64,000 nt of DNA from Gemmatimonadota bacterium (GTDB taxonomy: Bacteria > Gemmatimonadota > Gemmatimonadetes > Palauibacterales > Palauibacteraceae). Below are positions 26,401 to 29,049 of the stretch, piece by piece. A program made the position numbers and the translations under genes. Under the pieces are notes generated by a model, which saw only the letters and a program-made list of their open reading frames with translations, was not told the DNA's origin and did not search any database. The stretch covers positions 1,792,001 to 1,856,000 of the forward strand of contig OY762926.1 in assembly GCA_963666735.1 (NCBI GenBank), given 5' to 3'. Each line of letters opens with the position of its first letter. The stretch's first letter is position 1.

Positions 26401-26708
26401 ACCACCGCGTGGTCGCTCGGGGCCACGGCGAGGGCGCCGATCGAGTGTACGGGCTGGTCGTCGAACACGGGCCGCCAGTGCAGCCCGGCGTCGTCCGTCT
26501 TCCAGATGCCGCCGGTCGCGGCGCCGGCGAAGTACGTGTTGCGGTCGCCCGGCACGCCGGCCACCGAGGAGACGCGGTTGCCAACCGGTCCGATGTGGCG
26601 CGCCCGCAGCCCCTCGTACTGCTCGGGGACGAGCTGCTGCGCGTCCAGCGGCACGACGGCCGCGAGGGCGAGGGCGAGACTGCTGGAGAAGCGGCGAACG
26701 TTGGACAT
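23457..26708 (-). CDS. Secreted BNR/Asp-box (VPS10/sortilin-like, glycosyl-hydrolase-like) protein
   Basis: Many S/TxDGGxxW Asp-box repeats; signal peptide from ATG 26708; C-terminal PGTYTVTL and helical tail. Confidence 0.88.
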   Translation of the reverse strand: MSNVRRFSSSLALALAAVVPLDAQQLVPEQYEGLRARHIGPVGNRVSSVAGVPGDRNTYFAGAATGGIWKTDDAGLHWRPVFDDQPVHSIGALAVAPSDHAVVWAGTGETSIRSNVSIGNGVWKSTDGGESWTHMGLEGTGRVGRILIHPRDADIVYVAALGHAYAESDERGVYRTTDGGASWERVLFADRGTGAYDMVMDPANPRKIFATMWDIDLKTWKRDSGGPGSGLHLTMDGGDTWTELEGNGLPTGTLGKIAVCMSHSDSDRVYALIETSDGVPMEGYETDTGELWSSDDGGRAWRLVNYSHNLASRQAYYTRCGVSSDDRDELYFLSSSFSVSRDGGATYEMFNFLGGGPPGGDPAAPGWDLHDIWVDPTNADRVFIGGDSGVAITENRMRSWSRMQLPIAQMYHVTVDNEIPYNVMGNRQDGPSYHGPSNTRYTGFWARGLIPRGDWTTVGGGESGFATPDPTDPNIVWSSASGAGAVGGIVVRHDRERGQFRDVEVWPESTMGYPAEEIRYRFQWTFPLLISPHDNETIYVTSQHVHRTRNRGQSWEVISPDLSTNDRSKMTISGGLTPDNIGVEFCCVIYAFDESPIQQGVFWAGTNDGLVQVSRDDGATWTNVTGNIPNLPPDGIVRSIDASRFDVAKAYITIEHHQVGDFDARAYRTDDFGETWTQITNGVDNYPVDYTRYLLEDPVRPGLLYLGTETNVYISYDDGESWQLFMPNLPPTPYYGLIIQEHFNDFVAGTYGRGYWILDDLSPVQQLTPEVAASGAHLFAPRDAYRFNDISEPQVMYEDWSVGENPPNGASINYWLGGGEGREVKVRVENAEGETLATLDGSTHDGFNRVWWNFRGPDAKPVEYRTKPQFADWMPMPEVSRQVGGGFFGGGGGPRQPPGTYTVTLVVDGEDVGSEELTVLRDPNAEGSMADILAQKALLDDIVEDRNRVAGIVNQIELLRRQIYDLRPVLEDAGDAEDILAAGEALDASLIEVEGELVQLKNTGPDGVRWPSMIGGRLSYLQRTVGTADFPPTDQHAEVAQILSDRIDEVAVRLQAVLAGELAEFNQMLQARVGRVITTDQDG

Positions 26709-26811
26709 GGCTCTCTGCCTCGTGAAGCGGGTCATTTGAGCGAGGAAACGTGCGGAGAAGAAGGGGCGCGGACCAGAGCCCGGGTTTCTTGGTTCAGGCT
26801 CGACGCCAACG

Positions 26812-27678
26812 TCAATCAGGGTCGCGGACATCCCCGGATGCTTCGTCAACCGCAGCGTCCCCATCCGGGTTTGTGGCTGTTGAGAGCCCCTTCCAGAAAC
26901 CGGCACGGATCTGGCGTTTGGTGTTCTCGGGAAGTGGGTCTCCTAAACGGTTCGCGGCCTCCTTGATCAGCCATACATCGATTAACCGCGGGATTCGCGG
27001 CCGGTGTGCCAGGATTCCTGCAACCGCTTCCGCGTCGCGCGCACTTCGAATGGCCCAACCACATGCTTCGCCAAAACTGGTCGCTGTTGCGTCCGTAGCG
27101 ATGTTCACCGGTATGTGGCGGTGAGCCTCGTCGGCCTTCCCTGCGTGTCGTGAGATGAATCGAGTGCAATCGTTGCGCGATAACGTGATCAGGTCATCGA
27201 CTTCCCGAACGAGCGTCGCTGCCTGATTGGCTCTCCTCGGTAGGGGTTCTATCCCAAGGAGGACCACGGAGACCCCGAACTCTTGCGCCTCGACGACGCC
27301 TTCCCGCACGTCCTCATCTCCGCTCATCAGGTATGCCGTGCGTACAGCTCCGTTCCGGGACAGTACGATGAGGTCCCGCACGATGCGGGAGTCTACCCCT
27401 TTCTGACCGTGTTTCGTCAGGCGACCCAAGCGAAGCTTGACCCCCTGCTGTCCGCCGATGTGCAACTGGTCGTCGGTAGGAACGGCATCCGGTGCGGCAT
27501 CGTACCAGTAGGTTCTGAGATGCACCTGCTTCGCATGGCTATCGCAGCGTGTCCTCAAGAGCACGGTCGCCTTCTCGGGGTGGAGGATCAGGTCAGCTCG
27601 ACGGCTGGTACCGAAACATAGATCCCCGGCAGCTGCAAGAAGATACCCGGCGTCAATGAAGATCGCGTACCGGTCCAT
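26812..27678 (-). CDS. NYN-domain (LabA/DUF88, PIN-like) ribonuclease with C-terminal helical domain
   Basis: IFIDAGYL, RTYWYDA, QKGVDSRIVRDL, LMSGDEDVREGV, LVREVD acidic NYN motifs; AGGAGG RBS at 27688-27693; visibly more AT-rich codons than the flanks. Confidence 0.9.
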   Translation of the reverse strand: MDRYAIFIDAGYLLAAAGDLCFGTSRRADLILHPEKATVLLRTRCDSHAKQVHLRTYWYDAAPDAVPTDDQLHIGGQQGVKLRLGRLTKHGQKGVDSRIVRDLIVLSRNGAVRTAYLMSGDEDVREGVVEAQEFGVSVVLLGIEPLPRRANQAATLVREVDDLITLSRNDCTRFISRHAGKADEAHRHIPVNIATDATATSFGEACGWAIRSARDAEAVAGILAHRPRIPRLIDVWLIKEAANRLGDPLPENTKRQIRAGFWKGLSTATNPDGDAAVDEASGDVRDPD

Positions 27679-27704
27679 CCGATCGATCCCTCCTGCGAAA
27701 AGCG

Positions 27705-27739
27705 AAAAAAAACGGGCCCCCGCCAAAAGGCGGGGACCC
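27705..27739 (-). terminator. Intrinsic terminator immediately upstream of the NYN gene
   Basis: Minus strand GGGTCCCCGCC-TTTT-GGCGGGGGCCC (11-bp stem with one G-U), followed by G and T8. Confidence 0.85.
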
Positions 27740-27781
27740 CAAGATCAGGGCCGCAGAGGCCCCAGTCCAAAACAACTAGTG
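27705..27781 (-). ncRNA. Candidate ~75-nt small RNA / leader (two hairpins) preceding the NYN RNase
   Basis: Bounded by the predicted promoter and the terminator; hairpin GGGCC-TCTGC-GGCCC at 27748-27762. Confidence 0.45.
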
Positions 27782-27787
27782 GTAAGT

Positions 27788-27816
27788 ACGCTAATCGTGC
27801 GGCATGGGTTCCACAA
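27788..27816 (-). promoter_or_regulatory. Putative sigma70 promoter for the NYN leader
   Basis: TTGTGG-N17-TAGCGT; same TTG-N17-TAnnGT pattern as the tRNA and 6S-like promoters in this window. Confidence 0.55.
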
Positions 27817-27864
27817 GATCCCATTTCGGACCCGGGCTTACCTCGTCGCGAAGGCCCCGAAGCG

Positions 27865-29049
27865 TCAGTTGTAGGCCGGGAGGCCGGTCTCGTCGTGTCC
27901 CAGGATGAGGGAGTGAATGTCGTGCGTGCCCTCGTAGGTATAGACCGACTCCAGGTTCGCCATGTGACGCATGGAGGCGTACTCGGCGAGGATCCCGTTC
28001 GCGCCGAGCAGCCGCCGCGACTCGCGGGCGCAATCGCACGCCATGTTCACGTTGTTTCGCTTCGCGAGGGAAACGTGCTGCGGCCGCATCGTGCCTTCGT
28101 CCTTCATCCGCCCGAGCCGGAGGCAGAGGAGCTGCGCCTTCGTGATCTCGGTGAGCATGTCCGCGATCCGGACCTGCTGGATCTGGGTCTGCGCGATCGG
28201 CGTCCCGTCGAACTGCACGCGGTTCTTCGCGTACTCGACCGACTCGCGGTAGCAGCCCATGGCGGCGCCGACCGCCCCCCACGAGATCCCGTACCGCGCC
28301 TGCGTGAGACACTTCAGCGGGCTCTTGAGTCCCCCGCTGCCCGGGAGGAGGTTCGTGCGCGGCACCCGCACGTCCTGCAGCACGAGTTCGGAGGTGTCGG
28401 ACGCCAGGAGCGACAGTTTCCCCTTCTGGTCGCTGGCGGAGAAGCCGTCGCGCCCGGTCTCGACGAGAAAGCCGCGGATCGACCCGACGTCATCCAGGTC
28501 TCCGGTCTTGGCCCAGATCACCGCGATGTCGGCCATCGATCCGTTCGTAATCCACATCTTGGCGCCGTTCAGGACCCACTCGTCCCCGTCCTCGACGGCC
28601 CGCGTGATCATGCCGCCGGGGTTGGAGCCGAAGTCGGGCTCGGTGAGGCCGAAGCACCCGATGGACTCGCCGCTCGCCAGCCGCGGCAGCCACGCGCGCT
28701 TCTGTTCCTCCGATCCGAAGGCGAAGATCGGGTACATGACGAGGGCGCCCTGTACCGAGACGAAGGAGCGGAGTCCCGAGTCCGCCCGCTCGAGTTCCTG
28801 CATGATGAGGCCGTAGGCCACGTTGTTGAGACCCGCGCAGCCGTACTCCTCGGGGAGGTTCGCCCCGAAGAATCCGAGTTCGCCCATCTGGGGGATGAGT
28901 TCCCGCGGGAACGTGCGTTCGATGTAGTGGTGGCCGATGATGGGCAGGACTTCCCGGTCCACCCACTCGCGCACCAGATCCCGGATGGCCGTCTCCTCTT
29001 CGTGGAGGAGCGCATCGAGATTGAAGTAATCGACACCCTCGAAACTCAT
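27865..29049 (-). CDS. gcdH: Acyl-CoA dehydrogenase, glutaryl-CoA dehydrogenase-like
   Basis: ELERADSGLRSFVSVQ, GCFGLTEPDFGSNP, KMWITNG, ARYGISWG, YTYEGTHDIH. Confidence 0.85.
   Translation of the reverse strand: MSFEGVDYFNLDALLHEEETAIRDLVREWVDREVLPIIGHHYIERTFPRELIPQMGELGFFGANLPEEYGCAGLNNVAYGLIMQELERADSGLRSFVSVQGALVMYPIFAFGSEEQKRAWLPRLASGESIGCFGLTEPDFGSNPGGMITRAVEDGDEWVLNGAKMWITNGSMADIAVIWAKTGDLDDVGSIRGFLVETGRDGFSASDQKGKLSLLASDTSELVLQDVRVPRTNLLPGSGGLKSPLKCLTQARYGISWGAVGAAMGCYRESVEYAKNRVQFDGTPIAQTQIQQVRIADMLTEITKAQLLCLRLGRMKDEGTMRPQHVSLAKRNNVNMACDCARESRRLLGANGILAEYASMRHMANLESVYTYEGTHDIHSLILGHDETGLPAYN

Follow-up and report, generated by a model that had tools for sequence, protein, structure and literature searches.

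An apparently undescribed RNA motif dedicated to a subfamily of NYN nucleases, and its possible role as a nuclease-inhibiting RNA

The NYN cassette between gcdH and a BNR protein gene

The window, i.e. the whole stretch of 64,000 nucleotides that was analysed (contig OY762926.1 of a Gemmatimonadota bacterium), carries an accessory cassette directly after the gcdH stop codon (26785..27864, minus strand; right end approximate), which was delimited by comparison within the genus. Its coding part is a NYN (PF01936) RNase gene of 288 aa (26812..27678, minus strand), assigned by Pfam, a structure model and homologue alignment. Upstream of this gene and on the same strand lie a predicted sigma70-type promoter (27788..27816), with a –35 box TTGTGG at 27816-27811, a –10 box TAGCGT at 27793-27788 and a 17-nt spacer, and a predicted small RNA of about 75-78 nt (27705..27782, minus strand), whose start we infer at 27783-27780 and which consists of a U-rich 5' part, a motif hairpin, a terminator hairpin and a U tract. 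Hairpin 1 (27747..27763, minus strand), with a GGGGCC stem and a loop of 4-5 nt, is recognized by clade comparison as a non-terminator copy of the motif described below; the second copy is the intrinsic terminator itself (27705..27739, minus strand; 11-bp stem at 27739-27714, T8 at 27712-27705), and since the two hairpins share the motif, they are imperfect repeats. The Shine-Dalgarno sequence AGGAGG (27689..27694, minus strand) is placed 3' of the terminator, so that the NYN gene would be made only by read-through, and the ATG follows at 27678, with 26 nt between it and the T tract. An earlier note on this DNA, made from the letters alone, had listed promoter, hairpin, 11-bp stem, T8, AGGAGG and ATG, and all of them were found on the minus strand at the positions claimed, the hairpin at 27762-27748. 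The same is true of the AT shift that it ascribed to the NYN gene, which has a GC content of 0.60 and a GC3 of 0.66, as compared with a GC3 of 0.91 for gcdH and 0.95 for the BNR gene. Its remark that the RNA is not tandemly repeated stands insofar as Tandem Repeats Finder calls no array (27600-27900), but there are two copies of the motif here, as in many homologues.

The fold of the 86-nt leader has a computed energy of –41.1 kcal/mol (z=–4.6), with none of 200 shuffles as stable, and two plain hairpins account for the window RNA when nested folds are computed. The terminator pairs have a probability of 0.99 or more, and forcing the 3' arm open costs 22 kcal/mol. An antiterminator switch or a riboswitch leader was considered and rejected, as there is no competing fold and single-hairpin versions of 28-39 nt also exist. 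The Shine-Dalgarno sequence of the read-through transcript can be paired to the U tract in its minimum-energy fold (27689-27713, minus strand). The window promoter was not called by a stock promoter scan; the pattern TTGnnn-N17-TAnnnT occurs only 178 times on both strands of the genome, and a version of it with a spacing of 16-18 nt precedes 10 of the 26 tRNA/tmRNA genes checked, in keeping with the claim that the pattern is shared with tRNA promoters. Both boxes are retained in most of the window's clade, in which the spacer is variable. No Rfam family reaches its gathering score for the window RNA or at 15 homologous loci; sub-threshold matches to rnk_pseudo, suhB and BjrC68 were set aside, as they depend mostly on the terminator.

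By comparison within the genus, promoter, hairpin, terminator and NYN gene belong together as a single accessory cassette. A genus-wide DNA search (36 genomes) returned the full cassette in two (G000, G234) and a remnant in one (G017), in which promoter, RNA and terminator are retained and the gene body is deleted; the cassette is missing after gcdH in the other 17 of the 20 genus loci examined, and the NYN protein is present in one of 41 related genomes, namely the window's own. The stretch is found intact, with 0-1 differences, in contigs of all four sequencing runs compared, some of which are possibly the source sample, and no joint across the cassette was seen in these contigs. The gcdH-BNR junction (window 27864) is variable in the genus, where it can be empty, hold this cassette or hold other genes of 2-5 kb.

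The hairpin lies 125-160 nt past the gcdH stop on the same strand, as would be expected if it ended the upstream gcdH operon and had nothing to do with the NYN gene. This reading is refuted by two observations and retains virtually no probability: the element is absent after gcdH in empty-site relatives, none of the 16 cassette-free junctions inspected having a terminator like the cassette's, and the motif sits before NYN genes in unrelated contexts. Since gcdH junctions without the cassette lack the terminator, the hairpin came in with the NYN gene. The test by which the earlier note could have been overturned, a hairpin that merely ends the idh-gcdH operon, thus failed to refute it.

The encoded protein matches PF01936 over residues 4-166 (E=6e–9, 37 bits, cut-off 24.2), and no other Pfam match is found in its 288 aa at E up to 0.1; PADLOC, NCBIfam and a profile search of solved structures give no match to it, the last no significant one. 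Its AlphaFold model (pLDDT 87.8) consists of a nuclease domain (residues 1-175), whose closest solved structures by model comparison are 2qip and the MARF1 NYN domain, pointing to a PIN-like fold, and a helical C-terminal domain (residues 199-267). The latter, modelled as four helices (26878..27084, minus strand), has no family assigned: its best structural Z is 7.3, to generic helical bundles, and no hit at 0.9 or above was returned from the Atlas. D9, D96, D121 and D123 are conserved in 152 of 153 aligned homologues, and dN/dS in the nuclease domain is 0.15-0.23 (three pairs). Metal-dependent RNase activity is presumed from family membership; the NYN classification paper, in its available part, gives the function as unknown (PMC5499597). 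A profile search of the family yields 970 clusters at 50% identity (E up to 1e–30), not all of which have the RNA, and the named homologues at 80-85% identity are from Ca. Palauibacter and other Gemmatimonadota. One homologue (P0030) is predicted to join the NYN domain to a portion of an IS110 transposase, which is probably the result of an insertion.

A leader RNA conserved among homologues

For the comparison across phyla 160 loci were fetched (the best 79 of 273 genome matches and the best 80 of 186 metagenome matches), a set biased to close relatives. With the window they are 161, of which five are without upstream sequence, leaving 156 evaluable loci that were curated by hand, duplicates included. 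A leader is present at 137 of them, 133 times in sense and four times inverted (three distinct), and missing at 19; at 70% protein identity, 49 of 56 clusters have it and seven do not. The hosts of leader-bearing homologues belong to eight phyla. A strict terminator test is passed by 58/77 loci as compared with 8/770 random positions and 35/1540 shuffles, and a promoter-like site lies upstream of 104 of 119 distinct leaders, versus 101 of 1210 control windows. The predicted RNAs measure 28-86 nt, their median being 56, and 81/104 have two hairpins; the median distance from terminator to start codon is 23 nt. In 31 of 79 leaders the first helix begins 5-9 nt past the –10 box, a position that gives modest support to the RNA start site proposed above. 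No conserved protein neighbour of the NYN gene emerged among 138 scanned, in agreement with the claim that there is no adjacent protein antitoxin.

Carriers of the cassette in culture, all non-pathogens, are Sinorhizobium fredii NGR234, on a plasmid, and two Azospirillum species. On pNGR234a homology suggests a NYN start about 200 nt upstream of the annotated one, and at two loci on Sinorhizobium symbiotic plasmids (L178, L179) the cassette abuts an Xre-RES toxin-antitoxin pair.

What recurs in these leaders is a U-rich strand and, after it, a stem that starts with G-R-G-C-Y-C, usually that of the 3' hairpin. The G-R-G-C-Y-C arm, a pattern defined after inspection, is present in 78 of 114 leader terminators, which a sequence-blind finder had located in 157 loci, as compared with 3 of 76 ordinary terminators in the first 1.2 Mb of the host genome. 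When 18 cores selected for equal length are aligned without gaps, all cells pair and two-sided changes occur at 5/8 pairs, and in a model-fitted alignment of 70 cores they occur at 7/8; the terminator hairpin of the window's clade has three pairs with two-sided changes. The five core pairs of hairpin 1, which is not a terminator, are invariant in 10/10 clade sequences, with varying flanks. Among 28 hand-picked two-hairpin RNAs pairwise identity is 0.34 in the arm of the 5' hairpin and 0.83 in the motif arm, the latter value being inflated because the consensus served as anchor for that arm. More than one motif-like hairpin is found in 50 of 120 leaders, about six of which look spurious, versus 6 of 1178 controls; in the shortest leader RNAs (28-39 nt) there is a single hairpin and the motif is the terminator itself. 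To judge from the comparison with ordinary terminators, the stem sequence is constrained beyond the needs of termination. The earlier note had named a conserved and covarying upstream RNA among homologues as a test of its proposal; conservation and covariation are indeed seen, across phyla, so that this attempt at refutation failed too. At two loci (L159:760-870 and L160:2800-2900, minus strand) the terminator hairpin of the inverted units is longer and contains an internal segment common to both; they may represent a second RNA subtype.

The motif also appears specific to its gene. Of the 73 matches that a first model (R1) has in 787 kb of sequence, which in part had served to train it, 72 lie within 190 nt of a NYN start; R1 missed the window's own copy. 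A second model (R2), in scans in which 133 or 44 candidates per genome were scored, matches the window leader only, both in the window and in the whole genome. Of 28 leader-bearing genomes it matches 24, in 23 of which its best match is at the NYN gene, and it matches 0/10 relatives without a NYN gene; no convincing copy was found elsewhere in 12 genomes with leader-less NYN genes. Given that R2 missed 4/28 leaders in this chosen set and both true leaders (2/2 new genomes) in a set of 150 random genomes of one class, and that limited candidates were scored, further copies of the motif can have been missed. A general leader of unrelated genes was rejected as an explanation after scanning 50 chosen and 151 class-wide genomes, the off-targets being weak ordinary terminators or palindromic repeats of a single genome. 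The latter, an acidobacterial one (G075; L215-L217, L219-L229, L194), has at least 15 scattered, nested palindromic repeats of about 130 nt that are REP-like. In viral contigs the exact motif pattern has 15 matches in apparently one coding gene, none near a NYN gene, and these were treated as chance.

In a held-out draw of Pseudomonadota, seven of 400 genomes have a NYN gene, and all seven genes have a promoter-hairpin leader as judged by eye, four of the motif type and three with a different stem. The different-stem leaders L266 and L268 have a longer conserved motif in common, and the proteins of these two and of L270 are without R125. A draw of Actinomycetota gave five sporadic NYN copies with leader, in four genomes, one of which was already in the set. 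In a plasmid collection a leader is present at 4/9 loci opened, all alphaproteobacterial, and absent from 5/9.

It is conceivable that the terminator only limits expression of a mobile RNase gene, as a passive attenuator that is similar among loci by descent and of which the protein recognizes nothing. U tracts that look leaky before the ribosome-binding site in most loci and the absence of an antiterminator fold fit such an attenuator, and ordinary terminators sometimes resemble the motif, as in the 150 random genomes, where R2 gave six weak matches at ordinary terminators and none near a NYN gene. We consider it improbable, however, because the neighbouring 5' hairpin has lost its sequence similarity while the motif stem has kept it, the non-terminator copy is invariant in the window's clade, and units occur inverted and duplicated.

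Action in trans or control in cis

Whole promoter-RNA-terminator units are duplicated in three lineages, i.e. at 17 loci of an actinobacterial clade, at L046 and L053, and in Azospirillum. In two lineages, that of L070 and that of L159 and L160, the unit is inverted and has its own promoter-like site (near-consensus in L070, judged by eye in L160); as an inverted unit points away from the NYN gene, it cannot attenuate it. Moreover, eight broken NYN genes with differing breakpoints retain an intact RNA unit, although, the gene being ten times the length of the RNA, decay of the gene first is expected by chance. Duplicated units, inverted units and broken genes with intact RNA suggest, from the arrangement of the loci, that the RNA may act in trans.

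The alternative that weighs most against an antitoxin role is autoregulation in cis, in which the nuclease would bind or cut the motif in its own leader, leading to termination or mRNA decay. The enzyme, a regulatory or housekeeping RNase, would so set its own low level, and the terminated RNA would be a by-product. We regard this as rather unlikely, yet several observations agree with it. What is conserved in most loci is the terminator hairpin, which is sometimes the whole RNA; RNAs of 28-39 nt, in which motif and terminator coincide, fit control in cis equally well; 133 of the 137 leaders are sense and directly before the gene; and intact leader-less genes exist in operons and as widespread paralogs. 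A bacterial NYN protein is described, in the available text, as a sequence-nonspecific enzyme that trims ssRNA in crRNA maturation (10.1101/2024.04.08.588522). Cis control alone would not readily account for inverted units with their own promoter-like sites, nor for upstream duplicates that are each closed by a terminator of their own, and the structured 5' hairpin, often at the predicted +1 (the 31/79 leaders above), suggests a short RNA stabilised as a product.

The leader-less homologues bear on the same question. The 19 loci without leader fall in about nine lineages, and 18 of them keep all four aspartates; this count of about nine lineages with an apparently intact enzyme and no RNA speaks against a strictly essential antidote. 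Leader-less loci, paralogs and plasmid loci show that the NYN protein can exist without a linked RNA. Two actinobacterial paralog groups of 9 and 10 loci (L274-L282; L283, L286-L294) are without the RNA leader and are possible domesticated forms. They are found in genomes of 7-10 Mb, have R86 and R125 substituted, and each group has its own conserved upstream sequence; we take their hosts to be Streptomyces-like. In a leader-less Acidimicrobiia clade (L056, L057, L113, L131) the NYN gene stands after infB in L057 and before truB in L056, an arrangement that suggests capture into a translation operon. Leader-less homologues depart more at conserved sites (p=0.0013, 49 vs 7 clusters), a deviation that would fit attenuation or domestication and would fit plain distance too. 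Eight conserved basic residues do not separate RNA-bearing from RNA-less proteins (13/49 vs 4/7, p=0.18); the subset R86/K93/R125, chosen after inspection, does (4/49 vs 4/7, p=0.005). RNA and protein co-vary weakly (Mantel rho 0.13, 16/500 permutations).

A further possibility is that the nuclease needs the RNA, as a cofactor or guide in an activating ribonucleoprotein or as a small RNA that it matures. The tight linkage in either orientation recalls the RNA motifs associated with DUF3800 (PMC5737381, in the part available), and the NYN active site is stated to be exposed, so that specificity may come from other parts (PMC5499597, likewise in part). Such a role seems very unlikely, a shade more so than passive attenuation: there is no variable guide-like segment between the conserved parts, the shortest RNAs are one hairpin, the window RNA has matches of 14 nt or less elsewhere in the genome on the strand searched, and the catalytic residues are kept in leader-less genes.

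A possible RNA inhibitor and its relation to known systems

The explanation that we prefer, on balance of the analysis and with about an even chance of being right, is a two-part module in which a predicted NYN ribonuclease would be bound and inhibited by the predicted short RNA, as in AbiF and type III systems. Most transcripts would end at the terminator, giving RNA in excess, and the nuclease would come from read-through. It would recognize the U-rich strand and the G-R-G-C-Y-C stem, present twice in the window RNA, and the bound RNA might block the active site or serve as a decoy substrate; the same element in the mRNA leader would provide feedback in cis. When transcription stops, because of phage, stress or loss of the element, the RNA would decay and the free nuclease might cut cellular RNA and arrest growth, which is the least-supported step. 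Of the earlier reading as an RNA antitoxin in an abortive-infection module, an RNA ligand of the RNase thus remains the best reading, given the conserved covarying motif, but abortive infection finds little support. The protein itself has no PADLOC match, PADLOC matches are limited to 3 of 62 selected neighbours (mostly those, among the 138, without a housekeeping Pfam match), and there is a single NYN locus on a viral contig, which has no leader, besides one unverified phage record with leader. The links of the cassette to defence islands or phages are therefore weak. HEC-09, of different architecture and the one bacterial NYN gene for which a phage test was found, gave no defence, according to the available text (10.1101/2024.01.29.577857).

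The closest parallel is AbiF/Abi_2. In the RCd22-AbiF pair of C. difficile a two-motif terminated RNA neutralises the nuclease in cis as well as in trans by protein binding, and the common features are one promoter, most transcription stopping before the nuclease gene, a short two-motif RNA and no protein antitoxin (PMC12373285, in the part available). However, the nuclease is here NYN/PIN-like and not HEPN, the motif mostly coincides with the terminator stem, viral loci are rare and the system is a prediction from sequence. The abiF motif RF03085 is not among matches at E up to 10 (26600-28000), nor does it reach the gathering score at 15 homologous loci. The type III systems ToxIN, CptIN and TenpIN have, as far as the accessible part of PMC3401426 goes, the same order of promoter (here predicted), RNA, terminator and endoribonuclease, and the same sporadic occurrence on chromosomes and plasmids. 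Their RNAs are pseudoknot repeats (again from partial sources), whereas here there are 1-4 hairpin copies and, by Tandem Repeats Finder, no tandem array, and the protein is NYN by Pfam and structure, not of the Kid/MazF-like ToxN fold. With a different fold, no repeat array and no RF03085 match, the cassette belongs to neither AbiF nor type III.

The DUF3800-associated motifs are likewise ended by a terminator and tied to one protein family, in either orientation (PMC5737381, in part). They differ in protein family and in motifs, and the RNA is here simple and nearly always directly upstream and sense. NYN/LabA-like nucleases (PF01936) share the NYN fold and the four acidic active-site residues, and a linked non-coding RNA or RNA inhibitor is not mentioned in the available parts of the papers on them (PMC5499597; 10.1101/2024.04.08.588522; 10.1101/2024.01.29.577857); by contrast with these, the present subfamily stands alone and has, in addition, a helical C-terminal domain for which no family was found. 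A literature search, outside which lay most subscription journals and the supplements of PMC5737381 and 10.64898/2026.09.22.753630, found no description of the motif. What has been found is a real and apparently undescribed RNA motif dedicated to a NYN nuclease subfamily.

Taken further, the cassette would represent a fourth lineage of toxin-antitoxin systems made of protein and RNA, based on the PIN/NYN fold. Its antitoxin would be the terminator hairpin itself, an RNA of 30-80 nt both setting expression and inhibiting the enzyme, and the lineage would extend over no fewer than eight phyla and have given rise repeatedly, by domestication, to housekeeping paralogs free of the RNA; we put this somewhat below an even chance. 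To our knowledge, no natural RNA inhibitor of a NYN nuclease, the fold of MARF1, is known, and this would, if true, be the first. Toxin-binding RNA antitoxins have been described for toxins of the ToxN fold and of the HEPN fold, and the latter case has been linked to the origin of Cas13 (PMC12373285, as above in part). If the preferred reading is true, the PIN/NYN case would represent a third origin of the toxin-binding RNA antitoxin design, and a function would be given to a large unstudied group of NYN proteins, that of the 970 clusters. Even if the nuclease does no more than regulate itself in cis, the RNA motif is still uncatalogued, shared between phyla and paired with a specific protein.
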